A stretch of 64,000 bases of DNA. It comes from a virus (lineage: Duplodnaviria > Caudoviricetes). Below the pieces are notes generated by a model, which did not search any database, was not told the DNA's origin, and was given only the letters and a program-made list of their open reading frames with translations. The stretch spans positions 96,001-160,000 of IMG/VR virus record IMGVR_UViG_3300043434_000734; one strand, 5' to 3'. Shown one piece after another: positions 12,877 through 49,915 of the stretch. Every line of letters begins with the position of its first letter. Position 1 is the first letter of the stretch. The position numbers were made by a program, and so were the translations under genes.

Positions 12877-14247
12877 ATGTCATATTTCCGTTCATATTTC
12901 GAAAAAAATAATACGATAATCAAGGATTCCTTGGTTAACACTGCCAAAAACCCAACCACTGAGATTTTTTATGGTACGGGATTTTCTAAATTCTTATTTA
13001 AAATTGATTTCACCGATTTATTAAGTAAAGTAAATAATGGTGAATATGTGATTGATGAGAATACAAAACACACATTAAATTTAACAAATTGTATTTTTGG
13101 TGATGAAGGTTTTAAAGGTCAAAACCGCGCAACGAGTAGGGATAGGGCAACGTCATTTGATTTAATTTTATTTAAAGTACCTGAATTTTGGGATGAGGGT
13201 GTGGGATTCGATTATTCCGACGATGGATTTGATTATACGAGGGGAAATAAAACATACGACCAGAGACCATCGAATTGGTACAATAGAACAACAACTAACA
13301 CTTGGACTGATGTTGGTGTTTATACCACATCTCCTGAGATTATTTCAACAATAAGTTTTGACAATGGAAATGAAAATATAAACGTTGATATAACCGATTA
13401 CGTAAATGGTATTTTAACAGGCGATACTGATAATGGATTAGGGTTGGCTTTTAGTTTAATATTTGAATTACTATCACCTGATAATGACCAATCCGTTTCA
13501 TTTTTTACAAAATACACACAAACATTCTTTGAACCTTTTGTTGAGTCATTTTTTGATGATAGAATAGAAGATAATAGAAGTCAATTTGCGGTAAATATAA
13601 GTCAAAATTTATACTTATACGTAACCAAGGGAGGTAACTTTTATGATTTAGATACTTTACCTACAGTGGATATCACTGATTCGTTAAATAATCCAATATT
13701 TGGTTTAGATGAACTATTTGTCACAAAAGTTAAAAAGGGTGTGTATAAAGTGTCATTTGGAATACCGATTAATCTTTGTGACGGTAAAAAATTCTATTAT
13801 GATAATTGGTATAATTTAAATATTGATGGGGTTTCGATACCTAACGTCACACAAAAATTTGTACCTAAACCTTATACATCACAATATACGATTGGTACAA
13901 ATCAAACTGAGATAGAACGTTATAAAATACAATTCTTTGGGGTAAAACAAAATGAAAAGATTAAACGAGGTGAAAAGAGAAAAATTGTAGTTTTATTTAA
14001 ATCTATTAATGACCCTAAAACGGTATTATTTAATGAGGTATATTATCGAATGTATATTAAGGAAGGTAGAACTAATGTTACAATACACGATTGGACCCAA
14101 GTGGATATGACAAATGAAAATTCATTTACTTTGGATACGTCAATCTATATCCCTAGAGAATATTTTATTGAAATTAAAGGTAAAACTCACAATGAGGAAA
14201 TATTCTATAACAACGAGATTCAATTTGAAATTATCTCGGAAAAGTAA
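12877..14247 (+). CDS. Probable virion structural protein
   Basis: Beta-rich 456-aa ORF after the spike gene with a late-motif upstream. Confidence 0.6.
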   Translation: MSYFRSYFEKNNTIIKDSLVNTAKNPTTEIFYGTGFSKFLFKIDFTDLLSKVNNGEYVIDENTKHTLNLTNCIFGDEGFKGQNRATSRDRATSFDLILFKVPEFWDEGVGFDYSDDGFDYTRGNKTYDQRPSNWYNRTTTNTWTDVGVYTTSPEIISTISFDNGNENINVDITDYVNGILTGDTDNGLGLAFSLIFELLSPDNDQSVSFFTKYTQTFFEPFVESFFDDRIEDNRSQFAVNISQNLYLYVTKGGNFYDLDTLPTVDITDSLNNPIFGLDELFVTKVKKGVYKVSFGIPINLCDGKKFYYDNWYNLNIDGVSIPNVTQKFVPKPYTSQYTIGTNQTEIERYKIQFFGVKQNEKIKRGEKRKIVVLFKSINDPKTVLFNEVYYRMYIKEGRTNVTIHDWTQVDMTNENSFTLDTSIYIPREYFIEIKGKTHNEEIFYNNEIQFEIISEK

Positions 14248-34901: not shown

Positions 34902-35972
34902 GTGTTAACTACCTTAGAAAAATATCACAAAGATGGTTTGTTACATAAACAAACACACCCGACTCTTGATTTAACTATTTGGAATTACACCCCAAAAGTT
35001 CAGTATGAAAAATTATGGGATGAAATCACAATACAATGTCGTGGATTGGTAACTAATTCTAATGGTGACATTGTTGCTCGACCATTTAAGAAATTCTTTA
35101 ATTATGAAGAACATAAACCAGAAGAGATACCAAACGAAGAATTTGTTGTTTATGAAAAATTAGACGGTTCATTAGGTATTTTATTTAATTACCAAGGGGA
35201 ATGGATATTGTGCACTCGTGGATCATTCACATCACCCCAAGCAATTAAGGGTAAAGAGATTCTTAATAGACACGATATAAGTGCGTTAAGAAAAGATAAT
35301 ACACTTTTATTTGAAATTATTTATCCTGAAAATAGAATTGTTGTTGATTATGGTAACGAAGAAAAATTAGTGGTAATTGGTGGTATACATACTGAAACCG
35401 GCGATGAAATATCCGATGAAGGTTTATCTTTTTTACAACAAGCTGGGTTTGAAGTTGTAACAACATATAAAACTTGGGGTGAAGGTTATGATTTACTTAA
35501 AGAGGATATAAGTAAAGATAAAGAAGGATATGTAATTCGTTTTAAAAGTGGTTTTCGTATGAAAATCAAAGGAGACGAATATGTAAGACTTCATCGTATT
35601 TTAACAAACATATCTAATAGGGATATATGGGAGTATTTAAAGGACAATAGACCGTTTGATGAATTACTCGAAAAAGTACCTGATGAATTTAACGATTGGG
35701 TTAAAAAAACCGTTAGTGATTTAAGATATGGATGTTACCAATTAAGAGAACGCGCAGGTAAATTACACGATGGTTTTAGATATGGTAAATTTGGAGACAG
35801 AGAGGTCGAACCATCTAAAAAAGAATTTGCGGAATTTGTAATGAAACAACAAGAAGTCCTACACGGTATTATGTTTGCTATGTGGGACGGTAATAATAAA
35901 AAAGTAGACGAAATAATTTGGAAATTAGTGAAACCAAAATATTCAAAACCATTTAAGAAAGATGAAAATTGA
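34902..35972 (+). CDS. RNA ligase (T4 Rnl1-like)
   Basis: CRGLV, ARPFKKFFNY, EKLDGSLG, FEIIYPENRIVV, EGYV, KIK. Confidence 0.92.
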   Translation: MLTTLEKYHKDGLLHKQTHPTLDLTIWNYTPKVQYEKLWDEITIQCRGLVTNSNGDIVARPFKKFFNYEEHKPEEIPNEEFVVYEKLDGSLGILFNYQGEWILCTRGSFTSPQAIKGKEILNRHDISALRKDNTLLFEIIYPENRIVVDYGNEEKLVVIGGIHTETGDEISDEGLSFLQQAGFEVVTTYKTWGEGYDLLKEDISKDKEGYVIRFKSGFRMKIKGDEYVRLHRILTNISNRDIWEYLKDNRPFDELLEKVPDEFNDWVKKTVSDLRYGCYQLRERAGKLHDGFRYGKFGDREVEPSKKEFAEFVMKQQEVLHGIMFAMWDGNNKKVDEIIWKLVKPKYSKPFKKDEN

Positions 35973-36441
35973 AAAAAAAAGAATATATCTCGATGATGTA
36001 AGAACACCATTACAAGATGATTGGGTAGTTGTCAGAAACTATGATGAATTTGTTAGTAAGATTCGTTTAGTGGGGTTAGAAAATATTGAGGTTATTTCAC
36101 TAGATCACGATTTAGGTGATAGTGCAATGATTGAATATTACAATAATGTAAAGGATAATTATGAATTAGACTACTCAAACATTACAGAAAAAACCGGATA
36201 CGACTGCTGTAAATTTTTAGTTAGTGAGAGTATGAGTAAAAATATCCCATTACCCCAAATTTATGTACATTCCGCAAACCCAATTGGGAGTGCAAATATG
36301 ATGGGGTACATAAATAATTATTTTATGAATTCTAAATTACCACAAACTTGTATTCGTGTCAATATTCAACACACAATTGGAGAAGAGTTTATCTTATCAC
36401 CTGAACTTAGAGAAAAAAAATGGAAAAGAAAGGATAATTAA
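35962..36441 (+). CDS. Receiver-like cyclic-phosphate-processing domain protein
   Basis: YLDDVR, ISLDHDLG, TGYDC, HSANPIG; adjacent to RNA ligase. Confidence 0.75.
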   Translation: MKIEKKRIYLDDVRTPLQDDWVVVRNYDEFVSKIRLVGLENIEVISLDHDLGDSAMIEYYNNVKDNYELDYSNITEKTGYDCCKFLVSESMSKNIPLPQIYVHSANPIGSANMMGYINNYFMNSKLPQTCIRVNIQHTIGEEFILSPELREKKWKRKDN

Positions 36442-36497
36442 TTTTTTTTATTCAAAAAATGATATATTTTTGCTAACCATTTAACTAACTAAACTTT

Positions 36498-36833
36498 ATG
36501 ACTAAAATTGATAACCCAACTAAACAAAAGTACTTCAAAGAATTGAAACTGGAGGGTAAATACAAAGATTTTACGGACTTTTATGATGAAAACAAGGAAA
36601 CCATCTATAAATCAATAATCGACGTTTTTAAAGAGTTTAAAGAGACTAAAAAAACAAAATTAACCTTGAACATATCGGCTAAAATAAAAGGTCTCGAATG
36701 GGATACCGAATTTAATTTCGATAGGTCTGAAACAATAGTTTTAAAAAGAGATGTGATGCCGTATTTTGAAGAAATTGAAGATTACGAGACTTGTGGTGAA
36801 GTATTAAAATTATATGATTGCTTGACTTTTTAA
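36498..36833 (+). CDS. Hypothetical protein
   Basis: 111-aa ORF. Confidence 0.75.
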   Translation: MTKIDNPTKQKYFKELKLEGKYKDFTDFYDENKETIYKSIIDVFKEFKETKKTKLTLNISAKIKGLEWDTEFNFDRSETIVLKRDVMPYFEEIEDYETCGEVLKLYDCLTF

Positions 36834-36860
36834 AGAAATTTAACTATTATAGTATTGTAT

Positions 36861-36923
36861 CAGGAGAGAGGTACATTTATTTTTGTCATATCCCCGTGGG
36901 TTTTTAATCTTCGGGGATTTTTT
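36861..36923 (+). ncRNA. Putative trans-antisense sRNA C
   Basis: 5' 30 nt nearly identical to + strand 46397-46426, so antisense to that mRNA start; ends in atccccg...cggggat-T6 terminator. Confidence 0.65.
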
Positions 36924-37170
36924 ATGAATTAAAAATTTAATTGTACTATATAAAGAACTTCTTGTTATTATTATATTTTTCTTGGTATTCTGATATTTTT
37001 GTTGTATTTTTCTAATAGTTATATAAAAAAAATACAATATGTTAAATTTAATTATAGGTTTATTCGTCTTATGTTCCTCATTTGGAATTACACTTTCTAA
37101 AACACAAACTCATTACGGGTTTCGTAAACAACGTCAACACGTTAAACCTTTAACGTTAGATAAAGATGTG

Positions 37171-38478
37171 TTAAAGCATAACTCTTGATCCGACCAAGAA
37201 GTTACTTAACATTGGGGTATTCGGTTCGGTATTTAAATTCAATTTGTAATTAAAACTGAATCCAAAACGTTTAGTTATTTTATAATCAAAACTACTACCC
37301 AATAAAAACCCAATCTGTCTTCCTACCATAGTACCACCAGTAAAGGTGTTGTAACCTAACGGTGACCACATTGTAAAAACTTGTGGAGATATCGTTAATT
37401 TCTTATTATACTGATACGGTTTTGTCCAAAATACTACTGTGGATGTTGACAAACTAGTTGTGTAGGATTCTTCACCTTTCATTAGTAAGGTAATCAACCC
37501 AACATTATATCCGTAAGTCCCCAATTTAGGGTGAGGTTTAATCCAAGTATAACCTAAGAGACCCATATATGTTCCTTTTAAGTACGCTGAGGTAAATGAA
37601 TAACTATTTAATGAATTCAATTGTCCTTTATTTGTCAATTTCATTACAGTTACTCCCGATGAAATTGCAAATTGGTCAAATGTTGAGAAAGCCATTCCAT
37701 TTAAACTATATGATTTATCACCCATCAAAGATGATTTAGACATTCCTACGGTCATAGCTAAAGAATATGTACCGTCGGCCGATTGTGCGGTTGTTAAATC
37801 CGATGCTATTAACATAGGATTTAAATTTTGTTGTTTTCTTTTCTCTTCTTTTTTCTTTTCTTCCTCTTTTTTCTCTTCTTTCTTAGACTCGGATTTTGAC
37901 TCGTCTTTCTTCTTCTCAGTCTTACTTTCTGATTTTGATTCACTCTTACTTTCTGTTTTTGAATCGGTTTTAGATTCTGACGAAGATGAGGTGTTATTTT
38001 TATTATCCGACGATGAGGGTGGTGTTCCACTATTTGATGATGAGGTTGATGGTTGTGTACTTGTTGTTGCACTTGAACTGACGGCTGACGCAGAATTACT
38101 TGCAGCATTCGATGCTGAATTACTAGCAGCATTGGATGCGGCGGTCGATGCTGCCTGACTTGCCGCAGCAGTTGCAGCCGCTGCAACTTGTTGTGTAATT
38201 GTTTGTTGTACTACGGTATTTGTGGGACATCCCATACTATTATATGCCACATATGTTTGTTGTAACCAAACTTGTAATGAACCACCTTGTACTTGTGCTG
38301 GGGTGAATGTTTTTATTTGATTGTAAAATGAAACTACGGCATTACCATTAACATACGTTGTGGTGGCAATTTTAATCTCACCAGAACATTTATCAACAAA
38401 TGTTTGAGTCATAATTGATTGACCCTTTGTGGTAAAACTAAAAAATAATATTAGGAGAGAGATAATTATTTTTTTCAT
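37171..38478 (-). CDS. Exported protein with Ser/Ala and Lys/Glu linkers and predicted C-terminal beta-barrel
   Basis: Signal peptide; amphipathic beta-strands to the C-terminus (FSFNYKLNLN...NFLVGSRVML). Confidence 0.65.
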   Translation of the reverse strand: MKKIIISLLILFFSFTTKGQSIMTQTFVDKCSGEIKIATTTYVNGNAVVSFYNQIKTFTPAQVQGGSLQVWLQQTYVAYNSMGCPTNTVVQQTITQQVAAAATAAASQAASTAASNAASNSASNAASNSASAVSSSATTSTQPSTSSSNSGTPPSSSDNKNNTSSSSESKTDSKTESKSESKSESKTEKKKDESKSESKKEEKKEEEKKKEEKRKQQNLNPMLIASDLTTAQSADGTYSLAMTVGMSKSSLMGDKSYSLNGMAFSTFDQFAISSGVTVMKLTNKGQLNSLNSYSFTSAYLKGTYMGLLGYTWIKPHPKLGTYGYNVGLITLLMKGEESYTTSLSTSTVVFWTKPYQYNKKLTISPQVFTMWSPLGYNTFTGGTMVGRQIGFLLGSSFDYKITKRFGFSFNYKLNLNTEPNTPMLSNFLVGSRVML

Positions 38479-38488
38479 TATGTTATTT

Positions 38489-39220
38489 CTATTCCATCAA
38501 TTTTAAGTTGTAGTCGTTTATTGTGAATGGACTATATATTGAGTATCTAACATTATTAGATATATTTTTTGTCACTTCGTGAGTGTAATTATATTTTTGA
38601 TGTTCAATTAAAATACATTTTCTAAAATCGGGTAAAAAATCAATAATACCGTTGTTAGTGTATAGCTTTAAGATTGATCCGTCGTCATAACTTCTTTTGT
38701 CGTTTAAAAAAAATAGGATAGTAAATAAACGATTTCCATCTGGATCATTATCCGTATGTTTTCTAATAAACGAACCATTTGGGTAGACGTTAATGTTACC
38801 CATTAAATTTTGTTTAAATTCTTCTTTTACTTTTTTATAAAATAAATCATTTATTATACCTTCATATACCTTTAATAAAATATCATAAATTCCCACATCT
38901 TTTAGGTATTGTATTGGGTGAGTGAGAAAAAAATTAAAATAGTCTTCATCGTAGAATCCAAACTCATCATTTAAATTCTTTAAGAATTGAAAATCGTCAT
39001 ACTTTATTCGATAATTTGAATTGATTTTATTAAATCTTGATAAATCGATTTCTTTTACTTTATTCTGTACATTATCTGACCATTGTAAGAACCCTAATGA
39101 ACTATCTATTTTATTTAAATCAATATTGAAATTATTCACCAACTCACCTAGCCGTGTAAATTCGTCAATATTAAGTAGTTCTTCTAAATTATATATTTTA
39201 TAGTCAAAATTTAAATTCAT
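38489..39220 (-). CDS. 2OG-Fe(II) oxygenase
   Basis: NVYPNGSFIRKHTD, TILFFLN, HEV, RYSI. Confidence 0.85.
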   Translation of the reverse strand: MNLNFDYKIYNLEELLNIDEFTRLGELVNNFNIDLNKIDSSLGFLQWSDNVQNKVKEIDLSRFNKINSNYRIKYDDFQFLKNLNDEFGFYDEDYFNFFLTHPIQYLKDVGIYDILLKVYEGIINDLFYKKVKEEFKQNLMGNINVYPNGSFIRKHTDNDPDGNRLFTILFFLNDKRSYDDGSILKLYTNNGIIDFLPDFRKCILIEHQKYNYTHEVTKNISNNVRYSIYSPFTINDYNLKLME

Positions 39221-39233
39221 AATTATAAATATA

Positions 39234-39257
39234 AAAAAAGGGGTAATTAACCCCTTA
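39234..39257 (-). terminator. Intrinsic terminator
   Basis: aagggg taatta acccctt hairpin with A-tract on +. Confidence 0.7.
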
Positions 39258-39282
39258 ATTTAATATTGTTTTAATTGTACGA

Positions 39283-40002
39283 TTATTTTGTAAAAATCCC
39301 CTTTTTAATCATTCTATCAAGAATGTTGGCACAAGCAATATCAAGTGCTTTCTTTGTTGCAATTGATATTGTTGATTGGTTAAATTTAATTGGGTCAATG
39401 GATGCGTCGGATAATAGAGTTAACTCTCTTTTTGTTGTTGCTTCACCTAAACCCGAGGCACCAAACAAAACACCAGTTTCAGCGTCGGTAAACCTAACTT
39501 GTAAACCAATACGAGTTACCATATTATCTTTAATTCCATCTTTAAGATTAATAGTTTCATCTTCAGAAATTGAATAGTCATAACATTCGATAGTCACAAA
39601 GTATTTTGCTAAATTAATTTTACCACGACCATCTAATTTATTTTCGGAAATACCTGATTGAGATGCTTGAAATTGCTTCACCATACGGTTTTTAATTTCG
39701 GTTTTATCTTCAGTAAACTTAAAACGATTTAAATTCTCTAAATACTCCATTGATATGTTGGCAACACCCAAACCAACACGCTTTTCTTTTAGTTCGGGAT
39801 ACATTTCATAAATTTCATCTGAAATACCACATTTAAGAATTTGAATGGGAATTTGTGGACCTTCGTAATCCATATATTGTGAAATGTCTTTTTTCTTCTC
39901 AAAATCGGCTTTATATTGTTCAGTTTTAGTTGACCCTATTGTTTGTGCGTTTCCTAAAAAACCAATTAGGATTAACGATAATAAAAGAAATATTTTTTTC
40001 AT
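39283..40002 (-). CDS. CsgG/HfaB-like exported protein
   Basis: Signal peptide; GVANISMEYL..LNRFKFTE, GLQVRFTDAETG. Confidence 0.7.
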   Translation of the reverse strand: MKKIFLLLSLILIGFLGNAQTIGSTKTEQYKADFEKKKDISQYMDYEGPQIPIQILKCGISDEIYEMYPELKEKRVGLGVANISMEYLENLNRFKFTEDKTEIKNRMVKQFQASQSGISENKLDGRGKINLAKYFVTIECYDYSISEDETINLKDGIKDNMVTRIGLQVRFTDAETGVLFGASGLGEATTKRELTLLSDASIDPIKFNQSTISIATKKALDIACANILDRMIKKGIFTK

Positions 40003-40005
40003 AAA

Positions 40006-40236
40006 TTATTTTGTTTTTGGTTTTTCATACCAAATATTATTTGGGTTATTTTTAAATGTCCCATCTATTTTCCAAGCAATACGGTTTGAAATGTCTAAAG
40101 CTCTGTTTTCTTGATTTGTGAAGTGTAAATAAATGCCGAATCCCTGAAAGGATAGGGCAAAACCTATCCAAATAACTATTAAAATTAAATATACTTTAAA
40201 GAGTGACTCCCCGACGTTTTTTAATGATATTGTCAT
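40006..40236 (-). CDS. Small membrane protein
   Basis: One long hydrophobic segment. Confidence 0.7.
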   Translation of the reverse strand: MTISLKNVGESLFKVYLILIVIWIGFALSFQGFGIYLHFTNQENRALDISNRIAWKIDGTFKNNPNNIWYEKPKTK

Positions 40237-40262
40237 AATCTATTTTATATATAAATACATCG

Positions 40263-40290
40263 AAAAAAAAAGGAGTCATTTGACTCCTTT
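40263..40290 (-). terminator. Intrinsic terminator
   Basis: aaggagtc attt gactcctt with A-tract on +. Confidence 0.8.
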
Positions 40291-40293
40291 ATA

Positions 40294-40542
40294 TTAACCT
40301 TCAGTTTCTTCTTTCTTTTTATGTGAGAATTTATCCAAAGTATCGGCTCCCATCCCAATACCCGTAATTAACATTACTGCGTTTACCAATTCAGGTGACG
40401 GTGCAAAATCCGAGTGAGAGAACGAATTTAAAACCATTGTTACACATAGGAATAACGCACCTATCATTGCGATTACCGGTTTTACCGATATTGATCCTCT
40501 TTCGTCTTTGAAGAGTTCAATTAACCATTCTTTAAATTTCAT
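40294..40542 (-). CDS. Small 2-TM membrane protein (holin-like topology)
   Basis: Two hydrophobic helices, basic C-terminus. Confidence 0.65.
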   Translation of the reverse strand: MKFKEWLIELFKDERGSISVKPVIAMIGALFLCVTMVLNSFSHSDFAPSPELVNAVMLITGIGMGADTLDKFSHKKKEETEG

Positions 40543-40568
40543 AGTTTTTTATTTTTGTCATTTGTTTA

Positions 40569-41180
40569 TTATCCTTCCATATGTATTTCTGCGTATTCAT
40601 CTTTTACTTTACCACACTTCAAACATTCTTCACTTCCGTCACCATCTAAATCCCCCCAAACGTGTTCACATTGTCTATGAGTAAAGTATTCGTCGATTTT
40701 ACCGTCACCATCAAAGTCCAAACCATCCATTACCCCATCACCATCTTCATCAATTTCAGTACCCTTCTTTTCAATTTTTGTTGTCTCATCAATTTCTATT
40801 GTATTTTCAGTTGTCAATTCTGGTAATACTAAAGGAGATACGGACATCGGTACTATCGGATTGTTTGGTCCGTCATTAGTATTACTTAACGATATGCCAT
40901 CTTCCTCATCCATTTTTTGAACTAACATTTTATCTTTATCCGTATCACTAAACCAATAATCAATAATTTTACCGTAACTACCGATAAAGGCACCCAACAA
41001 TAATAAAAGAAGTTCTTTCCACTCTCCCTCTATTGCTGATTTATTTAAAATCGCACCAAATATCCCCATTATAATTATCATAAAACCACCCAATACGATG
41101 GCCGTGATGAACCATCTACGCTTCATCATACTACTCAATAATTCCTTAAATCCACTTGGTGGTTGTTGTTGTTCACTCAT
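40569..41180 (-). CDS. 2-TM protein with DxDxDG Ca-loops and Cys/His cluster
   Basis: DEDGDGVMD, DFDGDGKID, DLDGDGSEE; CEH...CLKC. Confidence 0.7.
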   Translation of the reverse strand: MSEQQQPPSGFKELLSSMMKRRWFITAIVLGGFMIIIMGIFGAILNKSAIEGEWKELLLLLLGAFIGSYGKIIDYWFSDTDKDKMLVQKMDEEDGISLSNTNDGPNNPIVPMSVSPLVLPELTTENTIEIDETTKIEKKGTEIDEDGDGVMDGLDFDGDGKIDEYFTHRQCEHVWGDLDGDGSEECLKCGKVKDEYAEIHMEG

Positions 41181-41263
41181 CTTTTTTTTTGTTTTTTAAA
41201 AGTATGTCTTATTAAGAACGTTAGTGAACATATAAAGAGCACTAACGTTCGAATTTGATAAAA

Positions 41264-41578
41264 TTACCACTTAGGTGCCTCTTCCTTAAACTCATCACCC
41301 TCCTTTTTCTTAGGTTTTGGTTGAGGTTGTGTCGGCTCTGACGATTTTTCTTTAATTATTATAGTCTTTCCACCTGCAGCTTGTTGTTGAGCTTGTTGAT
41401 TTGAGTTTGTAATATTAATCACCGGCGCAGCCTGTTGTACTGGTGTTTCTTCTTTATCACCACCCGTTAATTGTGTTGTGAACCAACCACCTACACCTAG
41501 TGTAATTGTTGATACTAACCCTAATAGAATGTTCTTTAACGAACCTCCTGTACTTTCTGATTTTTCTTCTTCTGCCAT
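41264..41578 (-). CDS. Single-TM protein with Gln-rich tail
   Basis: ILLGLVSTITLGVGGWF. Confidence 0.75.
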   Translation of the reverse strand: MAEEEKSESTGGSLKNILLGLVSTITLGVGGWFTTQLTGGDKEETPVQQAAPVINITNSNQQAQQQAAGGKTIIIKEKSSEPTQPQPKPKKKEGDEFKEEAPKW

Positions 41579-41597
41579 TGTATTTGTTTTTATATAA

Positions 41598-41978
41598 TTA
41601 TTGTATTTTATTAAAATCTGTTATTCCTAATTGTCTATTGTCGGAATTAAATAATCCAATTCTGTATGCTGATTTTGGGAGGGCATTAGTATATACCTTT
41701 AATACATTATCTCCGGCAACAACATTCATAGTTTCTTTTGAGACTACTCGATTTGCGATATCAAATATTTTAACCGTAACCGAACCAGAGGTTTCCATTT
41801 TAAGGTTCATTGCAACTTCTGAAGTTACAAATGCAGTCTGTAATTTAATACCAACTGAGTTATTAATTTTAAGTTCTTCAGATACTGATTGTGGTATTGG
41901 TACAATATCTTCTTTATAACATCCCGTTAATATTGTCGACACAAGTACCAATAAGAGAATTTTTTTCATTTTTGCCAT
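41598..41978 (-). CDS. Lipoprotein with T9SS C-terminal-domain-like fold
   Basis: LTGC lipobox; VKIFDIANRVV...GDNVLKVYTNALPKSAY. Confidence 0.6.
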   Translation of the reverse strand: MAKMKKILLLVLVSTILTGCYKEDIVPIPQSVSEELKINNSVGIKLQTAFVTSEVAMNLKMETSGSVTVKIFDIANRVVSKETMNVVAGDNVLKVYTNALPKSAYRIGLFNSDNRQLGITDFNKIQ

Positions 41979-41980
41979 TT

Positions 41981-42325
41981 TTAATTTACTATTATTGTTG
42001 TCTTTTTTAATTCTTTCCTATCCACATCTTCGAGTACCAAATATAAATATCCCTTGGGTAGTGAATTAGTGTAAATCTTCTTTACATTTTCACCATTTTG
42101 TCCAATAAATTTTTCTCGACCTATTACCTGATTTGTGTTTTTATCTATTAGTGTTAAATAATGAATAGTATTCGATGTTAAATCAAAGTGTATAGATTGA
42201 CCATTTGAAACACTACTTTCGGTTACACTAAATATATCATCTTTGGCCATAACCTTTGGGTACGGTATTTCAGGTTTAGTACACCCCCAAAGTAAAATAA
42301 CCCATATAAATAATATTCGTTTCAT
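41981..42325 (-). CDS. Lipoprotein, paralog of 41598-41978
   Basis: LWGC lipobox; GENVKKIYTNSLPKGYLYL. Confidence 0.6.
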   Translation of the reverse strand: MKRILFIWVILLWGCTKPEIPYPKVMAKDDIFSVTESSVSNGQSIHFDLTSNTIHYLTLIDKNTNQVIGREKFIGQNGENVKKIYTNSLPKGYLYLVLEDVDRKELKKTTIIVN

Positions 42326-44262
42326 TATTTTAATTTTACTTTTAACTGTGTCCCACCCTTATTTACGGCATCTGTTGTTGATATCGATGTCAACCCCAAA
42401 ATACTACTTAATCCCATTTTCGGTAGAAATGTTATTTTGTATTCCGTTGTCTTATCTAATATAGTTGAACCATCAGTAATCAATGAACCTAACGTTATAT
42501 TATCACCTTTATCGGTCCCAAAATTAGTAGGATTACCTTTTGTTGTGAATTCTATTTTTTGAAATTCTAAAGCCGCATTATCATAGTTTAATTGAAATTG
42601 TGTACCAACTAATTCTTGTTCTAATGGGTCTACCGAAAGTGTTACAATCAACTTATTACCTACATTTTCGCTCATAACTAACACATTTACTTCATTGGTG
42701 GTTGTTTTACTTACCAAACTCATAGTTCTAATCGAATTACTACCAACACTACTTACACTTTGTTGTGCGGAATGTGATAGATTTATATCCCCTAACCAAG
42801 TGCCTGATATATTAAATACATCCGTTGAATTTGTGGTATTGATATCAAATACATAAGTGTTTCCTATGTATTTTGGAAACGTATTCCAATTGGATTTACC
42901 AATTGTATTATAAGTTTGCGTTGGTACTAATTTCACTAAATTAGGAAAGGTAAATGTATCTACTATATTATTAAATCCTGTCAAATGTTGTAATAATCGA
43001 TATGTATCTGATTCATTAAAAATTCCATCTCCGTTTACGTCGGCATTCATATATTGAACGCCATTTGTGAATTCCAGTCCATTTTGATTTCCTAAGATTC
43101 CACCATTTGATAATTCTTTAAATGCCAAATACACGTCCGATACCGTCACAACACTATTATATAATGTAGATAATGAATTTGTTGTCATTATCACTGATTG
43201 TGGTTTGTATTGTTGAATTTGATTAAATGTAAATTCGGCTTTTGTTCCATACCAACCATTTTGTAAACGAAGATATGATTGATATGTGGATGACGTAATT
43301 TTAGTTGAAATATTTGGAACGATTCGGAATATCTTCCAACCGCCAGCATCTTGTACATAAGTTATTGGTCCGTCGTATATATCAAATAATTGAATTGATT
43401 TAACATCTGATGGTGAAATACCCGTACCATCAAACTCTCTCGCATCTATGTATAATCGATGTCCACCAAATGATGTGGAATACACATCTATAATTGCCCA
43501 TTCAACTGAACCTGGAGTTGTTAGTGATTTGTATCCGTTTGGTATTTTGGTAGTATCTAATGAGTTCGTAACATCCACCACACCAGTTGAACTTAATGTA
43601 GTTCCACTTACTGATAATTTTGTTTTATCTAAATTACTACCAAAATCAAAATTGATTTTTGCTTGTTTGGTTGGAACACTTGCCACATTGGTTACTTCAT
43701 TTGTCCAATATGAATATACTTGTGGTGCGGAAGGTTTTGACCAATGTAAGTAAAATGCTTCTCCACCACCATATTCCTGAAATCTTGCAACCACCGAATA
43801 TCTTCTTCCGGCAATTAAATTTATCTGACCATATTGATACCCACTTGCCCCGTGTCCACCATAATATGATGTTACCACAACCCCATCAATTAATAAATCA
43901 GAAGCATCGTCTGAATTCACACCAAAGGTATATGTTCCGGTTTCTTGTGGTATAAAAAAGAATTCAAATTTATACCCAAAGTAATCACTAGCCCAACGAG
44001 GTACATTAAATGAACCGGTTGCAATATTTTGTAAAGTGGTTTCTCCTGTTCTGAATATTGTTGTGTTTGAATTTGTTGTGTTAAACATCGTAACAAAATC
44101 GGATGAAGTATTGGCAAATGCACTATATTGATTTGTTACACCGTTTCCATTGTGGGTTTTGTAAGAAGTATAATTAACATATCCCCAACCCGATTGAGCT
44201 AAGGATATGTTATATGTTAATACCAATAATAAAAGTACAAGTAATTTTTTCATACTACTCAA
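42325..44262 (-). CDS. Exported PA14 + dockerin-like + cohesin-like protein
   Basis: PA14: TGTYTFGVNSDDASDLLIDG; ADVNGDGIFNESD; GTQFQLNYDNAAL. Confidence 0.75.
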   Translation of the reverse strand: MSSMKKLLVLLLLVLTYNISLAQSGWGYVNYTSYKTHNGNGVTNQYSAFANTSSDFVTMFNTTNSNTTIFRTGETTLQNIATGSFNVPRWASDYFGYKFEFFFIPQETGTYTFGVNSDDASDLLIDGVVVTSYYGGHGASGYQYGQINLIAGRRYSVVARFQEYGGGEAFYLHWSKPSAPQVYSYWTNEVTNVASVPTKQAKINFDFGSNLDKTKLSVSGTTLSSTGVVDVTNSLDTTKIPNGYKSLTTPGSVEWAIIDVYSTSFGGHRLYIDAREFDGTGISPSDVKSIQLFDIYDGPITYVQDAGGWKIFRIVPNISTKITSSTYQSYLRLQNGWYGTKAEFTFNQIQQYKPQSVIMTTNSLSTLYNSVVTVSDVYLAFKELSNGGILGNQNGLEFTNGVQYMNADVNGDGIFNESDTYRLLQHLTGFNNIVDTFTFPNLVKLVPTQTYNTIGKSNWNTFPKYIGNTYVFDINTTNSTDVFNISGTWLGDINLSHSAQQSVSSVGSNSIRTMSLVSKTTTNEVNVLVMSENVGNKLIVTLSVDPLEQELVGTQFQLNYDNAALEFQKIEFTTKGNPTNFGTDKGDNITLGSLITDGSTILDKTTEYKITFLPKMGLSSILGLTSISTTDAVNKGGTQLKVKLK

Positions 44263-45904
44263 TTATTAAATCGACTTTATTTCCTTTTGAGTCGACAGCA
44301 TCGGATAATACAAAATAGAATAATCCGGCGGTATTTGTTAAAGATGTTTTTGGTGTAAATATTAATTTGTAAGGTGTACCAACTTTAATTCTTGATGTTT
44401 TTAATTGGTCAATGGAACCAAATGTCAATCTACCATTTTCGTGTGTTGAGAAGTTAGTGATTGTCGAACCCGAATCAAATATTACATTATCCAAAGTTAA
44501 TTTAGATTCGTCGTAATTCATTACAACTTGTAAACCCGCTAATTCCGATTTGGTTAATGTTGTTGTTAAAATAACTTTTCCATTTTCTAAGGTAGAAGTG
44601 ATACCCAATGTTACCTTCTCGAGTGATGTTGTTTTATAAGACATTGGTGAAGTGCTCATAGTTTTTAATGAATTGGTGTTTTTATTACTCACCGAATTAG
44701 TATATTGTCCGTCACTTATTTTAGTTGCAATTACTGACGGGTCGGATGAATGTGACCAATTTAAATCCCCACCCCAAGCAAAAACGGCATATACTTCTTT
44801 AATTGGAGAATCAATTATTACCTTATTTTTAACCATACCATCTAACCAACTTTGATTTAATAAACCACTATACCATCTGACCGATGTTGAGGTACTTGTT
44901 GGAATCATAGCCAATGTTGACATATCTTGACCCATTACGTGAGCAAATAAAGTATATGAATCACTTTCACCAAATGAATTACCATTTAGTGTAACCTTAC
45001 CTATCTTTTTTTCTAACTCAGGTAAAGTAAAGTAATTTCCGGTTCCACTAATATCAGTTTGTGAATGACCTAAAAATGCTTTATATGCGTCCGATACCGT
45101 CACAATATTATTCATCCAACTTTTCTGAAATGCTGCACCAACGAATACACCAACTGAATCACCCACTTTAACTTGTGTGGTAAAAAGTACTTCACCACTG
45201 GCATCTAATGGTAATTGTGCAATAGGTTGTTGTGACCAATCAATATCACCACTACCATCCGATTTTAATTTCATCAGTTGAACATTATGGTCTGTGATGT
45301 TATATCCCTGTGGATATAACACTTTTACTTTAAATTGAGAAGTGTTACCTGTCACACTATTCAAAGATGACCACCCACCACCATAAATAGTTCCCACATT
45401 TGAACCATCGATATCGGTACCTGTAGCTAAATCTATTTTGAAAATATTATTGTATGTATTTTGATCTTTTAGAATATATTTCTGAGTTGCAATCAAACCA
45501 CTAATCGAAGCATCCGCTCTTTGAACTGTTAATTGACCAACATTCCAATCTGCATTAACCACATAATTCCAAGGCGTTAAACCATATTGAACATCTAAAT
45601 CATTATCACTTGCACCACCATTGAAATTAAATTTGTAATTGTTCCAACCTGTATAAAAAGTTTGAGCGGAGGAACCTTGATTAAATGTCGTTGAAATATA
45701 TGACAGTGCTTTGTTATTGTACTGATATCTAAACCAAAGATAACGAGGATTTTTAATCACTTGTCCTTTTGATAATGTATATTTGACAGTAATCGTGTCA
45801 CCAACCTTTAATCCGGTTGTGGGTGTTAGTGATTGACTAATTGTTAATTGACCAAATGATGTTAGACTTATTAATAGTAAACATAAGGAGAGAAGTTTTT
45901 TCAT
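44255..45904 (-). CDS. Exported cohesin-like/dockerin-like protein, paralog of 42325-44262
   Basis: VGDTITV..RYQYNNKAL; shared VTVSDAY.AF, W.GD.N.SHS, GLQVVMNYD. Confidence 0.7.
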   Translation of the reverse strand: MKKLLSLCLLLISLTSFGQLTISQSLTPTTGLKVGDTITVKYTLSKGQVIKNPRYLWFRYQYNNKALSYISTTFNQGSSAQTFYTGWNNYKFNFNGGASDNDLDVQYGLTPWNYVVNADWNVGQLTVQRADASISGLIATQKYILKDQNTYNNIFKIDLATGTDIDGSNVGTIYGGGWSSLNSVTGNTSQFKVKVLYPQGYNITDHNVQLMKLKSDGSGDIDWSQQPIAQLPLDASGEVLFTTQVKVGDSVGVFVGAAFQKSWMNNIVTVSDAYKAFLGHSQTDISGTGNYFTLPELEKKIGKVTLNGNSFGESDSYTLFAHVMGQDMSTLAMIPTSTSTSVRWYSGLLNQSWLDGMVKNKVIIDSPIKEVYAVFAWGGDLNWSHSSDPSVIATKISDGQYTNSVSNKNTNSLKTMSTSPMSYKTTSLEKVTLGITSTLENGKVILTTTLTKSELAGLQVVMNYDESKLTLDNVIFDSGSTITNFSTHENGRLTFGSIDQLKTSRIKVGTPYKLIFTPKTSLTNTAGLFYFVLSDAVDSKGNKVDLIIE

Positions 45905-45906
45905 TT

Positions 45907-46425
45907 TTACTTTTTGTTAAAAAATGTTTTATTAATTAACGATTCACACGTTTTTTTTATGGCAGACGATAACGCTTGTTGATTAACTTTATCACTACCC
46001 TCATCAGTAATTAACGTTGAGGTGGATATTTCCGAACTGGATTCTTCTGAGGTCGACTCTTTAAGTTTCTTACCTGTGTTATCGGTAAGAATCCCTTTCA
46101 TAATAACCAAAGTTTCCTCAACGTCTGAATGAAATACTGACACATTACGTTTTGTTCTATTAACGTCAAAGTATAAAATAACAGCACCAAATATTAAATC
46201 GGCCTGACTTTTGTCCTCCACGATGAAAAACTCCTTGTCTTGTAAAATTTCTTGAAAAATGTTTTTAACACCAAAAGCGAAGTTTCGGTTACCGGTAAAT
46301 TTACCAATTTTGATTTTGTTCTCAACCTCACCAATATATACTTTTCTCGTTTCCTGAGCATATGAAGAGAGTGCTAGGAATGAAAGTAATAAAAGGAGGA
46401 GAGAGGTTCCCTTTATTTTTGTCAT
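45907..46425 (-). CDS. Exported CsgG-like protein, distant paralog of 39283-40002
   Basis: Signal peptide; C-terminal NQQALSSAIKK aligns with NQSTISIATKK; ATG 3 nt after TATTTATT. Confidence 0.55.
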   Translation of the reverse strand: MTKIKGTSLLLLLLSFLALSSYAQETRKVYIGEVENKIKIGKFTGNRNFAFGVKNIFQEILQDKEFFIVEDKSQADLIFGAVILYFDVNRTKRNVSVFHSDVEETLVIMKGILTDNTGKKLKESTSEESSSEISTSTLITDEGSDKVNQQALSSAIKKTCESLINKTFFNKK

Positions 46426-46535
46426 ACCAATAAATACTCCGCATTTAAGTACTGACAAAAATCATATTTAAAAAAATTACTAATATTTTGTTTTGTTATT
46501 AAAATATTGTATATTAGACATATAAACATAAAAAT

Positions 46536-47318
46536 ATGAGTAATTTTAAACATCTTACCGAATTGGAAATCCAACAAATGACATTTGATTGGAGATATAG
46601 AGGTTTCACAGTTTTGGAACTTTTAACCGAAGAAGAATGTGATGAAATAAATGATGAATTGGAAGGATTACGTCAAGCACGTATCGGTACGACTACCGAA
46701 GACGGTAAAGCTTGGGGTGAGTGGGACCCATTCGCATATCCACACAAACTATCTGATAAATTAGCAAAATTATACGTTCACCCTAAACTTATTGAGGCTT
46801 GTGAGTTTTTGATGGAAGGTGAAATCGTAGGTATGCAAAGTTGGGCATATTTTAAACCACCTGGACAATTGGGTAGAGATCAACACCAAAACGCATTTTA
46901 TACTGGATGTAAACATAATGAAATTATCAATACCGCGTTAGCTTTAGATAATCACGACGAGGGTAATGGTGCGGTTTGGAACTATGAGGGTTCACACAGA
47001 TTACCGACATTACCTATTGAGGTGGATGAAGAAAGAACGAAAACGAATCCATCGTTTTGGAGAAATGAAAGAGGTAAACCTTGTATTATGCCCGAAGGAC
47101 ACGATTTCCGTAAAGTGGAAGGTATTTTGAAAAAAGGACAAGTCGTTTTACTTCACTCACACTGTGTACACGGTTCCGAAGCTAACAATTCAAATAGAAT
47201 GAGAAGAAACTATTTGGGTGGATTTTTAAAGAAAGGGGCTTATTACAATCAAGGAAGTCATATGAAACGTGAACCAATTGACGTTTATGAATTAAGAGAT
47301 AAACATTGGGGGAAATAA
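46536..47318 (+). CDS. PhyH-family 2OG-Fe(II) dioxygenase
   Basis: YFKPPG..HQNAFY, GSHRLP, HCVHGSEANNSNRMRR. Confidence 0.85.
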   Translation: MSNFKHLTELEIQQMTFDWRYRGFTVLELLTEEECDEINDELEGLRQARIGTTTEDGKAWGEWDPFAYPHKLSDKLAKLYVHPKLIEACEFLMEGEIVGMQSWAYFKPPGQLGRDQHQNAFYTGCKHNEIINTALALDNHDEGNGAVWNYEGSHRLPTLPIEVDEERTKTNPSFWRNERGKPCIMPEGHDFRKVEGILKKGQVVLLHSHCVHGSEANNSNRMRRNYLGGFLKKGAYYNQGSHMKREPIDVYELRDKHWGK

Positions 47319-47321
47319 ACT

Positions 47322-47708
47322 ATGAAAAAACCAAATGTCATAAACGTTCACGAATGTCCTGAATGTAAAGTACCCAAAGGATGGGGTGAAGAAATTATTA
47401 TTTGCAATCACGAATTATATTGTGGTAAATTAATGTGTTTCAAAAAGGGTGCAATGTTTTCAATGCACTACCATATGATTAAAGATGAGACTTGGTACGT
47501 AAACGAGGGTGAATTTTTATATCGATGGATTGATACTGAGACAGCAGTGGTAAACGAACAACATTTAAAAGTAGGTGATGTTGTGAGACAACTACCAGGA
47601 CAACCTCATCAATTAGAGGCATTAACTGACGGTGTGGTTTTTGAAGTTTCCACGGAACACTTTGATTCTGACTCATATAGAGTTTGGAAAGGAGATTCAC
47701 AAAAATAA
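47322..47708 (+). CDS. Cupin-domain protein
   Basis: KGWGEE, SMHYHMIKDETWYV, PGQPHQLEA, EVST.HFDSDSYR. Confidence 0.85.
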   Translation: MKKPNVINVHECPECKVPKGWGEEIIICNHELYCGKLMCFKKGAMFSMHYHMIKDETWYVNEGEFLYRWIDTETAVVNEQHLKVGDVVRQLPGQPHQLEALTDGVVFEVSTEHFDSDSYRVWKGDSQK

Positions 47709-47748
47709 AATATATTTAACTTTTCTTGATTATATACATATTTATATG

Positions 47749-47756
47749 TATCTTTG
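47749..47756 (+). promoter_or_regulatory. Bacteroidota-type -7 element TATCTTTG
   Basis: TAnnTTTG upstream of leader peptide 1. Confidence 0.75.
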
Positions 47757-47786
47757 TAAAAAGAAACAAACATTAATAAAAATTCA

Positions 47787-47885
47787 ATGAGACAATTTAC
47801 ACATACAATGTCGTTTACAATCTGTTCAAAATGGGCGGATGAAACTCGTATGTCCAATAGTCTCAGAGATATTAATCACGGTTAA
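47787..47885 (+). CDS. Putative attenuator leader peptide 1 (MRQFTHTMSFTICSKWADETRMSNSLRDINHG)
   Basis: A-rich start; carries an 8-nt complement of the downstream terminator arm. Confidence 0.65.
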   Translation: MRQFTHTMSFTICSKWADETRMSNSLRDINHG

Positions 47886-47911
47886 ATGTAAGTTTAACTA
47901 ATAGAATTAAG

Positions 47912-47945
47912 AAACCCTGAGACTTCAAAATCTCAGGGTTTTTTG
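47912..47945 (+). terminator. Terminator/attenuator directly before tRNA-Ala
   Basis: aaaccctgaga-cttcaaaa-tctcagggttt plus T-tract. Confidence 0.9.
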
Positions 47946-47950
47946 TTTAT

Positions 47951-48023
47951 GGGCCTGATGTCAACGGCAGACCATCTGATTTGCAATCAGAATGAATGGG
48001 TTCGATTCCCACAGCGTCCACCA
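47951..48023 (+). tRNA. tRNA-Ala(TGC), bulged acceptor stem, encoded CCA
   Basis: tctga-tttgcaa-tcaga; G3:U70. Confidence 0.8.
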
Positions 48024-48026: not shown

Positions 48027-48099
48027 TGGAATGTAGCTCAATGGTGAGAGCATCCGCCTGATACGCGGAAGGTTATAAGTTCGAGTCTTATCATTCCAA
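48027..48099 (+). tRNA. tRNA-Ile(GAT)
   Basis: tccgc-ctgatac-gcgga; full cloverleaf. Confidence 0.95.
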
Positions 48100-48104
48100 C
48101 ATTG

Positions 48105-48177
48105 GGAACTTTGGTATAGCCGGTGCGTACGTTGGACTGAAAATCCGAAGGAACAAGTTCGATTCTTGTAGGTTCCA
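48105..48177 (+). tRNA. tRNA-Phe(GAA)
   Basis: ttgga-ctgaaaa-tccga. Confidence 0.9.
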
Positions 48178-48240
48178 CAAATAAAGTAAAATTTGAACGA
48201 TAAAGTTAATCACTTTATTAAACAGAAATAACTTTATTAT

Positions 48241-48314
48241 GACCTCTTAGCTCAGTTGGTTAGAGCACCTCACTTTTAATGAGGGAGTCCCGCGTTCGAG
48301 TCGCGGAGGGGTCA
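48241..48314 (+). tRNA. tRNA-Lys(TTT)
   Basis: cctca-cttttaa-tgagg. Confidence 0.95.
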
Positions 48315-48319
48315 CACAC

Positions 48320-48392
48320 ACGGGTATGGTGAAAATGGTTATCATTTTAGTCTCCAAAACTAAAGTTCCTGATTCGAGTTCAGGTATCCGTG
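48320..48392 (+). tRNA. tRNA-Trp(CCA)
   Basis: ttagt-ctccaaa-actaa. Confidence 0.92.
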
Positions 48393-48453
48393 CAAATGTT
48401 CGATTTTTTTAGTCCGTTTCGAACTTTCGTGATATTTATAAATAAAGAACATT

Positions 48454-48993
48454 ATGAAAGAAGAAATATTAAAATTAAGAAATGAAGGTAAAACATTTAA
48501 CCAAATAAAAGAAATAATAAAATGTTCTAAATCTACAATTTCATATTATTGTAGTGAAGGGCAAAAAGAAAAAACAAAAATTAGAACTAAAAAGAGGAGA
48601 GAAAACATTATAATTGATAAATTAGAAAGATTTAAATATAGAAAATCTAAATCGAATAAAGAACGAATTAGAAAATTCAATAAAAGAGATAATCAAATGG
48701 ATGGATTAGTTAACAAAAAAATAGAAATTACATTCACATTTGAAGATGTTATCAAGAAGTTTGGTTATAGTACTGTTTGTTATCTTTCCGGAGAAAAAAT
48801 AAATTTAAATGAAAACACATACCATTTTGACCATATTTTACCATCAAGTAGAGGTGGTGATAACACATTAGAAAATTTAGGTGTTACACACGAAATTGTA
48901 AATAAAATGAAAGGGGACTTAACACCAAAGGAACTTATTCTTTGGTGTGAAAAAATTTTGAAATATAATGGATATGATGTAAATAAAATTTAA
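48454..48993 (+). mobile_element. HNH homing endonuclease with N-terminal HTH
   Basis: CYLSG...HFDHILPSSRGG.NTLENL...VNKMK. Confidence 0.88.
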
Positions 48994-49039
48994 TATTATG
49001 AAAAAAGAATTCGATATGCATTAGTTAAACTAATCGCAT

Positions 49040-49243
49040 ATGACAAACAAAGAGTACAGAGTAAAGAGAATGAAACAATCACACGATTATTGTTTCATAT
49101 GTCAGAAGAGAAATGGAAGTTGGTATTATGATTGCTCCCCAACTTTTGTTCACGGAAGACACGGTAATGGGAAACCGATTGAATCTCATAAAAGAAGAGA
49201 GTATAGAAGTTGGAAGTACAACAGAAAAACTCAATGGAAGTAA
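49040..49243 (+). CDS. Small basic hypothetical protein
   Basis: 67 aa with CxxC. Confidence 0.55.
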   Translation: MTNKEYRVKRMKQSHDYCFICQKRNGSWYYDCSPTFVHGRHGNGKPIESHKRREYRSWKYNRKTQWK

Positions 49244-49272
49244 TGTTTACTATTAACAGTAAACAGTAAACG

Positions 49273-49344
49273 GGTCTCTTGGTGTAACGGATAGCACGAA
49301 ACACTACGGATGTTTTAGTAAGGGTTCAAATCCTTTAGAGACCT
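49273..49344 (+). tRNA. tRNA-Arg(ACG)
   Basis: aaaca-ctacgga-tgttt. Confidence 0.92.
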
Positions 49345-49405
49345 CAATGTTCACAAATTTTTAATGTTCACGTTCCGTGAACAAACAAAAAAAGTGAACA
49401 AAAAA

Positions 49406-49476
49406 GTCAGGTTGGCCGAGCGGCTAGGTGAAGGTCTGCAAAACCTTTAAGATAGGTTCGACTCCTATACTTGACT
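49406..49476 (+). tRNA. tRNA-Cys(GCA)
   Basis: aaggt-ctgcaaa-acctt; U73. Confidence 0.93.
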
Positions 49477-49481
49477 CTTAT

Positions 49482-49553
49482 GGTGTTTGAAGCTTTAAGG
49501 TGAAGCACGAGTTTGTGGAGCTCGGGAAGACGGTTCGATACCGTTCATACACC
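49482..49553 (+). tRNA. tRNA-His(GTG)
   Basis: cgagt-ttgtgga-gctcg; G-1:C73. Confidence 0.92.
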
Positions 49554-49558
49554 CATAT

Positions 49559-49629
49559 TGCGGGGAGGAAGGTTCCCGACCAGTCTCATAAGCTGTGTCT
49601 CCCGAGTTCGATTCTCGGCCCCGCAACCA
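49559..49629 (+). tRNA. Atypical tRNA-Met(CAT): initiator-like acceptor, short D-arm
   Basis: tgcgggg/ccccgca-acca; ctcataa loop. Confidence 0.7.
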
Positions 49630-49680
49630 AAAAGTTTTAAAAATAATTTGAAATAATTTCGGATATTCGTATTTATTTCT

Positions 49681-49688
49681 TACATTTG
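49681..49688 (+). promoter_or_regulatory. Bacteroidota-type -7 element TACATTTG
   Basis: Same tacatttgtaaaacaataa context as 56016. Confidence 0.75.
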
Positions 49689-49709
49689 TAAAACAATAAT
49701 GACAGAAAA

Positions 49710-49838: not shown

Positions 49839-49843
49839 AATAA

Positions 49844-49915
49844 GCCTCTTAAGCATTGCAGGCGATGCGCCAGATTTGTAATCTGGATAACTCGGTTCGA
49901 TTCCGGGCGGAGGCT
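49844..49915 (+). tRNA. tRNA-Thr(TGT)
   Basis: ccaga-tttgtaa-tctgg. Confidence 0.9.

Follow-up and report, generated by a model that had tools for sequence, protein, structure and literature searches.

A predicted trans-acting antisense RNA of a large, probably Flavobacteriia-infecting phage is complementary to, and co-evolves with, the start of the phage's own envelope operon

We analysed a stretch of 64,000 nucleotides (positions 96,001 to 160,000 of the IMG/VR virus record IMGVR_UViG_3300043434_000734; below, the window) and found in it, at positions 36857-36923 of the plus strand, what is likely to be the gene of a trans-acting antisense small RNA (sRNA). Judged from the sequence, this sRNA would sequester the AUG-bearing 5' end of the probably leaderless mRNA of an envelope operon and so lower or delay the operon's expression. 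It is most likely a built-in RNA switch on the phage's own cell-envelope gene cluster. The in silico support covers the anatomy of the RNA gene, its conservation, the covariation of its structure and the co-evolution of RNA and target.

The window is AT-rich (G+C 32%). Among the cultured phages of INPHARED it matches only Flavobacterium phage immuto, distantly and in a neighbouring gene; the related contigs in IMG/VR reach lengths of 334 kb, and its DNA is present in freshwater metagenomes. We therefore consider the source to be an uncultured, large phage whose host probably belongs to the freshwater Flavobacteriia, the host phylum being presumed to be Bacteroidota.

RESULTS

A plus-strand RNA is complementary to the start of the envelope operon

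The plus-strand segments 36862-36890 and 46397-46426 have two blocks in common, AGGAGAGAGGT (11 nt) and TTTATTTTTGTCATA (15 nt), separated by a spacer of 3 nt in the first copy and of 4 nt in the second. A 15-mer repeat by itself is unremarkable here (33 such repeat seeds in the window versus about 12 expected from first-order Markov simulations), but a 15-mer with an adjacent 11-mer occurred in this pair only, and in 0 of 30 simulations. The 11+15-nt repeat over a distance of 9.5 kb, from which the original prediction had started, is exact, not expected by chance and unique, as each block was found at these two places only in the 64-kb window. The second copy lies at the head of an operon on the minus strand, where CAT at 46423-46425 is the ATG of gene 45907..46425. 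The features on the target side are:

37171..46425, minus strand: operon for secreted, membrane, PA14 and cohesin-like proteins and a 2-oxoglutarate (2OG) oxygenase
45907..46425, minus strand: first operon gene, for a secreted protein of 172 amino acids (aa) whose N-terminus, MTKIKGTSLLLLLL, is a signal peptide
46397..46427, minus strand: target site by predicted pairing, UAUG and codons 2-10 of the first gene
46430..46437, minus strand: conserved GTATTTAT box, -10/-7-like, 4 nt before the ATG, with a putative transcription start after it

A plus-strand RNA from the first copy is, as had been proposed, antisense to the beginning of the operon's first gene, over the AUG and the codons that follow it: 36862-36890 and the operon's 5' end formed 27 predicted base pairs with small internal loops (-36.0 kcal/mol). 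Among 5116 tiles from both strands of the window (mean -12.3, sd 3.3) the operon start was the best non-self site, and in all eight lineages scanned with their cognate sRNA the target was the top site of the entire operon. Computed for 12 lineages, the net gain of hybridisation after the cost of intramolecular folding ranged from -12 to -27 kcal/mol; the terminator remained folded. With a target 9.5 kb away and partial complementarity at the initiation region or 5' end, the element has the features of a trans-encoded sRNA. The next-best sites were at the starts of the signal-peptide genes 41978, 38478 and 45904 (minus strand; -28.7, -27.9 and -23.6 kcal/mol), and equivalents of the 38478 and 45904 sites recur in a relative, L001. 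These sites may be extra targets or a by-product of the AAA- and CUCUC-rich codons of signal peptides.

RNA and target co-evolve

Relatives were found in IMG/VR by way of the target gene and of the gene upstream of the sRNA, which encodes a 111-aa protein. Both partners were recovered in 13 lineages, and in every one of them the 5' part of the RNA was complementary to the start of the operon transcript. The RNA/target pair is nearly identical in the window, L001, L007 and L009. L006/L011 have the RNA GAGAGAUAC with the target GGUAUCUCUC; here GAUAC replaces GGUAC in the RNA and GUAUC replaces AACC in the target. The target of L002-4 starts with AUGGCAA and the RNA linker reads UUGCCAA, an A>G change matched by U>C, and in L053 the target AUGAUAAA...CUCUCUCUU stands opposite the RNA AAGAGAGAG...UUUAUCAU. 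A matched 4-nt insertion (UUUA/UAAA) in L178/L133 gives a 20-nt exact match, while L012/L050 have an unrelated 13-mer over the AUG, for which target and RNA are the sole exact matches in 67.5 kb (one further place has one mismatch).

When all RNAs were scored against all targets, the divergent RNAs scored best with their own cognate target. The cognate energies summed to -272.5 versus -190 +/- 15 for permuted pairs, and of 200,000 permutations one was as good and none better (nine independent lineages). Cognate pairs would have no advantage if a duplicate had diverged neutrally, and we conclude that RNA and target co-evolve. Compensatory evolution, as expected for a trans-encoded sRNA, was thus found across 13 lineages; covariation of the two partners in related phages had been set beforehand as the test of the antisense idea, and the idea passed it. 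Several of the differences between copies are G.U wobbles within the predicted helices.

The sRNA gene has a conserved promoter, structure and terminator

The features of the predicted sRNA gene are:

36822..36827, plus strand: -35/-33-like element TTGACT, within the last codons of the 111-aa gene, recognised by conservation
36845..36852, plus strand: -10/-7-like box TATTATAG, with the hexamer TATTAT at 36845-36850; conserved TAnnnT
36857..36923, plus strand: predicted sRNA of about 67 nt, bounded by promoter and terminator and matched by the covariance model R1
36857..36874, plus strand: 5' stem-loop SL1, in which GUAUC (36857-61) pairs with GGUAC (36870-74) around the 8-nt loop AGGAGAGA (36862-69)
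36862..36890, plus strand: target-complementary region, comprising the SL1 loop, its 3' arm and a U-rich linker
36891..36923, plus strand: intrinsic terminator, stem 36891-96/36912-17 with inner pairs and U-run 36918-23

The layout of the element is the same in the relatives: TTGAC(T/A), exactly 17 nt, TAnnnT (often TAnnTTTn), 6-7 nt and GUAUC, then a loop rich in purines with GRUAC closing it, ACAUUUAUU..UUUUGUCA and, at the end, a GC-rich hairpin with a U-run after it. TTGAC(T/A) was present in all the sRNA-bearing relatives displayed except the two most divergent lineages, L041 and L050, TAnnnT stood at constant spacing in all relatives, and the promoter geometry was maintained in almost all of the ~30 distinct relatives displayed. 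The form TAnnTTTn is close to the flavobacterial sigma-A box TAnnTTTG, which spans -12 to -5 (PMC9723704). By this geometry +1 would probably be at G36857 and the RNA would run from 36857 to 36923. Of the extent first proposed for the sRNA the terminator end therefore stands, whereas the start probably lies 4-5 nt further to the left.

The terminator itself was predicted correctly, as a hairpin (36891-36917) followed by T6 (36918-23). Among relatives both sides have changed at eight of its nine stem pairs, and on the minus strand the stem has no U-run after it. It is the only terminator after the 111-aa gene and also ends the upstream plus-strand genes; because the sRNA shares it, longer transcripts that carry the 3' untranslated region (UTR) of the 111-aa gene would carry the same seed. 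In silico, a promoter and a Rho-independent terminator thus enclose a short non-coding stretch as a transcription unit of its own, and the arrangement is also that of a 3'-UTR-derived sRNA with an internal promoter.

The 68-nt piece 36857-36924 folds better than its shuffles (z -3.7). The minimum free energy fold in the window favours a weaker alternative helix, rich in G.U, over SL1; the two helices described here are backed by the RNAalifold consensus (18 and 24 sequences) and by pair counting. In the consensus structure, counted in an alignment fitted to the model, 96% of cells were paired and both sides had changed at 11 of 14 pairs; 0 of 500 shuffles reached the observed pairing, and sliding the partners lowered it to 22-60%. 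In SL1, the U.G pair is U-A in some sequences, and the divergent members have both-sided changes at other pairs. The loop of SL1 is purine-rich and varies (UUGGAGAG, GUUAAGA, ACGUCAGA, GAGA), so that the Shine-Dalgarno (SD)/anti-SD-like sequence to which the original prediction had drawn attention is not conserved. Bacteroidota mRNAs are without SD sequences (PMC6847099).

A new sRNA family in related phages

In the window, R1 scored 73.9 bits at the sRNA and 19.9 bits (E 0.38) at the next best place, and copies were also found in related contigs. A loose DNA pattern for the linker gave 118 loci, many in unrelated viral contigs, and R1 recognised true sRNAs at 24 of the first 100. In all, roughly 35 or more IMG/VR contigs, from related jumbo-type phages, carry the family. 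The flanking protein is 38-87% identical among relatives, and the element is nearly invariant where the flanking genes are ~70% identical. A cmscan of 35000-48000 (E up to 1) matched none of the 4227 Rfam families, P1/P7 c4 included. This is a new sRNA family of a known kind.

No conserved open reading frame (ORF) was found in the sRNA stretch. A minus-strand mini-ORF is shifted in frame by a 4-nt indel and by other indels while the nucleotides stay nearly invariant; because the 4-nt indel destroys this mini-ORF, the stretch is not coding. Among sequencing runs, no RNA run was listed for the 1-kb stretch, and for the 86-nt stretch the listed runs held 2 of 6 sampled words only. Among the contigs of four runs, one metatranscriptome contig of 260 nt (X27) covers 36635-36894; being about 89% alike, it comes from a relative, and as it may stem from either strand or from carried-over DNA, we did not count it as evidence of expression.

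The duplex lies at the 5' end of a probably leaderless transcript

An RTATTTAT box precedes the target site in all 12 lineages with upstream sequence (L011 ends at the contig edge), and in these 12 the duplex starts 3-6 nt past the box. Since the putative start falls at or beside the AUG, the operon mRNA of this phage is probably leaderless or nearly so. We infer that RTATTTAT may mark a class of phage promoters that would yield leaderless, or nearly leaderless, mRNAs and is distinct from the TTGAC-17-TAnnnT promoter of the sRNA.

Over the window as a whole, genes are repeatedly preceded by RTATTTAT followed by 4-5 nt and ATG (in some cases with a longer leader), and at three of the places a terminator hairpin comes immediately before the box. 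The places are 63618, 46437, 40258, 39232, 26162 and 24333 on the minus strand and 48432, 59106 and 33994 on the plus strand.

Pairing at the start codon, as originally proposed, was found in the window and in eight other lineages, where the duplex spans the AUG and the first codons. In four others (L054, L057, L058 and L178) the site is at the start of the leader, roughly 60-90 nt before the AUG. With these four included, what the lineages have kept in common is pairing to the 5' end of the transcript. The target string is kept in these leaders, outside codons, and also where the reading frame shifts (L007 versus the window). Within the window, target codons 7-11 (ACC TCT CTC CTC CTT) are C-rich and atypical, as had been noticed before: their probability given the amino acids is about 2e-6, and they include two CTC, a codon that accounts for 2.3% of Leu in 60 window genes. 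The atypical codons and the persistence of the string across the frame shift and in the leader position point to selection on the target at the RNA level.

A hairpin stands directly before the target-gene AUG in L054 (1210-1290; AAAAAUCCUG...CAGGAUUUUU) and in L058 (reverse strand, about 1240-1270), suggesting a leader structure on which binding of the sRNA at the 5' end might act.

Operon products and gene neighbourhood

Nearly all products of the operon have a signal peptide or membrane helices, and the gene order is conserved in relatives. The 172-aa protein gave no Pfam, PHROG or PDB sequence match. Its AlphaFold model (predicted local distance difference test, pLDDT, 72.7) resembles outer-membrane lipoprotein folds of the HpaA, FlgT, CsgG, PelC and LptE type; the Foldseek matches (E about 1e-6, TM 0.4-0.58) were moderate, and the signal peptide is without a lipobox Cys. 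The fold may be CsgG/PelC/LptE-like.

On the other side of the sRNA, plus-strand genes for an Rnl1-type RNA ligase, a cREC-REC protein and the 111-aa protein, which is without family, stop at 36833:

36498-36833, plus strand: 111-aa gene; its last codons carry the sRNA promoter, and its stop codon is at 36831-33

The model of the 111-aa protein is confident (pLDDT 91) and has three strands packed on three helices. No Pfam or PHROG family was found for it, a PDB sequence search gave nothing useful, and there was no PDB fold match at E<=0.001. Distant homologues of this protein in L022, L034, L039, L042 and L043 have no sRNA downstream.

Between the sRNA and the operon end there is a 49-aa ORF with a hydrophobic N-terminus (37039-37188, plus strand), 115 nt downstream of the sRNA, which overlaps the final 18 nt of a convergent 435-aa gene. 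In L006 and L011 the start region of this ORF is strongly conserved, but many relatives differ in sequence after the sRNA. The window also contains a 25-nt inverted repeat (13074-13098 and 37028-37052, both plus strand; 24 of 25 nt complementary). One arm is within the 456-aa gene 12877..14247 and the other over the start codon of the 49-aa ORF (37039). The repeat could reflect another antisense relation or have arisen by chance (roughly 0.03 expected).

There are 24 tRNA genes and one tmRNA gene in the window; the tRNA genes are densely arrayed at 48027-54657, and the phage tmRNA (59436-59837) has the tag GNVYNNMEIAGLLATSKVAA.

DISCUSSION

In the mechanism that we propose, the sRNA would be transcribed from its own promoter, with the -35-like element in the last codons of the 111-aa gene. 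It would have three parts, beginning with a short stem-loop at the 5' end, continuing as a U-rich single-stranded linker and ending in the terminator hairpin. Loop and 3' arm of the stem-loop, together with the linker, would form an almost uninterrupted duplex of about 27 bp with the first ~30 nt of the operon transcript, which is predicted to start 3-6 nt past the RTATTTAT box. The duplex would bury the 5'-terminal AUG and codons 2-10, so that the loading of ribosomes on the first gene would be blocked, and it would probably also lead to cleavage of the transcript by a double-strand-specific activity. As an outcome, expression of the operon would be lowered or delayed. Put together in one tentative picture, which goes further and which we hold to be possible though doubtful as a whole, this would be an Hfq-independent RNA lock on a leaderless mRNA in jumbo-type phages of Bacteroidota, with a host-type promoter for the sRNA and a phage-specific RTATTTAT promoter for the operon, with weaker pairing at the AAA-/CUCUC-rich starts of signal-peptide genes, and with the timing of host-surface remodelling as its role. 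To our knowledge, Bacteroidota have no known Hfq.

Several points weigh against the sRNA as we describe it. Its production, both transcript starts, repression in preference to stabilisation, and the timing are all read from sequence. The motif TTGACW-N17-TANNNT was not enriched within the window (4 found versus 3.4 expected), so that it is conservation alone that argues for TTGAC-17-TAnnnT being a promoter. The most divergent members, L012/L050, are without the TTGAC promoter and match R1 weakly (34 bits). Among the cultured phages of INPHARED there was no DNA or protein match to the target gene, and the immuto genome had no match to R1. The alignment behind the structure counts, being fitted to the model, leans towards structure. 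Finally, because the site of four lineages lies upstream of the AUG, a block of the start codon is not a universal mechanism, and an effect of pairing at the 5' end on stability, in either direction, would fit all lineages.

This last point bears on the main alternative to the preferred block of translation with probable cleavage of the duplex, namely the same RNA and the same pairing with the opposite sign: the 5' end would be protected from decay, or the leader opened, and the operon activated or stabilised. Pairing at the 5' end stabilises some mRNAs, and here it is this pairing, not the AUG, that is conserved; L054, L057, L058 and L178 have their sites in the leader, and the leaders of L054 and L058 hold the hairpin just before the AUG. 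We nevertheless consider stabilisation rather unlikely, as the duplex lies over the AUG and first codons in the window and eight lineages. As this mRNA is probably leaderless, the first gene could hardly be translated as long as the sRNA is bound. A near-continuous duplex of 27-30 bp is also a typical substrate of double-strand RNases.

The two copies could instead act as DNA, either as direct repeats for recombination (att-like, for excision of a cassette) or as twin operators of one protein. In every lineage they bracket the same operon, 9.5-14 kb apart, and their co-variation would equally follow if they were operators of one protein or repeats kept alike by homogenisation; co-evolution could in principle result from DNA-level homogenisation of two direct repeats, and the single A.C mismatch in L058 shows no preference for RNA over DNA, both of which count against an antisense RNA. 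What makes a role as DNA improbable in our view is that one copy always lies between a conserved promoter and a terminator hairpin and overlaps a stem whose pairs co-vary as RNA, that the spacing of the half-sites differs (3 versus 4 nt, 8x8 loops, larger in L002), which a protein would tolerate poorly, and that several differences are compatible with G.U. Moreover, the repeats are oriented oppositely relative to their promoters, and no contig was seen in which the operon was cleanly absent around a single copy. Even less weight falls on the possibility that the segment is a functionless 3' UTR and terminator of the 111-aa gene joined to a decayed duplicate of the operon's gene start, although the minus strand does read ATG ACA AAA ATA A.., like a gene start, and the terminator is common with the upstream gene. 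The segment is nearly invariant between much less conserved genes, tracks the changes of the target in 13 lineages and has retained a promoter of fixed geometry. A dead duplicated gene start, which the original prediction had named as the way in which it might fail, is excluded by this conserved promoter, by the covarying terminator in >30 diverged contigs and by the indels that destroy the mini-ORF. The hydrophobic N-terminus of the 49-aa ORF (37039..37188, plus strand) and its position 115 nt downstream would suit a type I toxin-antitoxin system with the sRNA as antitoxin. We find this barely credible, since the mRNA of the ORF is not among the top sites of the sRNA and has no notable complementarity to it, the sRNA is present with different downstream sequence in many relatives, and the co-evolving partner is the 172-aa gene.

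If the translation block holds, the sRNA would, by analogy, work like the classical phage antisense RNAs, above all c4 of P1/P7. Like c4, it would be a phage antisense RNA directed at the phage's own mRNA at a non-overlapping site, by which the initiation of translation is blocked (PMC12197685). In contrast, c4 arises by processing of the very transcript on which its targets lie, and what it controls is an antirepressor in temperate phages, whereas a separate promoter serves the sRNA described here, which is encoded on the opposite strand at a distance of 9.5 kb and is directed at an envelope operon of a large, probably lytic phage. In the heteroimmunity of the related phages P1 and P7, differences in c4 RNA are matched by differences in its target. 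A comparable role in immunity specificity, with fast diversification, is weakened in our case because seed and site are nearly identical in L058 and the window though their target proteins are only about 50% identical.

With lambda OOP, P22 sar and lambda aQ the sRNA has in common that it is short, ends in an intrinsic terminator and pairs extensively with a phage mRNA, whose expression is lowered in those cases (PMC12197685). Those RNAs overlap their targets and are perfectly complementary by construction, while the one reported here is trans-encoded, imperfect and kept complementary by co-evolution. A cis-encoded antisense RNA of the OOP/sar type was rejected, as the target is 9.5 kb off and only the non-conserved mini-ORF is opposite the sRNA. 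VpdS of vibriophage VP882 and DicF of the Qin prophage are likewise phage-encoded, independently transcribed regulators that act by base pairing (PMC12197685; bioRxiv 10.1101/2024.10.31.621285). VpdS is reported to be Hfq-bound, DicF acts on a host mRNA, and both are from Proteobacteria; the sRNA described here differs in its long pairing (about 27 bp) and in that its only well-supported target is its own operon. CisR, from the prtV 3' UTR (PMC13250501), resembles it in using the terminator of the upstream gene and a promoter inside the end of that gene's coding sequence. As a departure from the CisR type, L050 is without a visible internal promoter.

Phage riboregulation is known mostly from temperate phages of Proteobacteria. 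The review PMC12197685 mentions no Bacteroidota-infecting or jumbo phage, and our literature search found no paper coupling "Flavobacterium phage" with "sRNA". If our interpretation is true, this would be the first sRNA-mRNA regulatory pair described for a phage of Bacteroidota, and probably an example of an antisense RNA that controls a leaderless mRNA at its 5' terminus, in a host phylum whose mRNAs are without SD sequences. Because the natural compensatory evolution is unusually clear, the target is known before any experiment. The family also gives a handle on the timing of the secreted CsgG-like, PA14 and cohesin-like envelope proteins. The lineages would also provide a natural set of orthogonal RNA/target pairs, and the diverged ones could serve as orthogonal RNA regulators for the genetics of Flavobacteriia.
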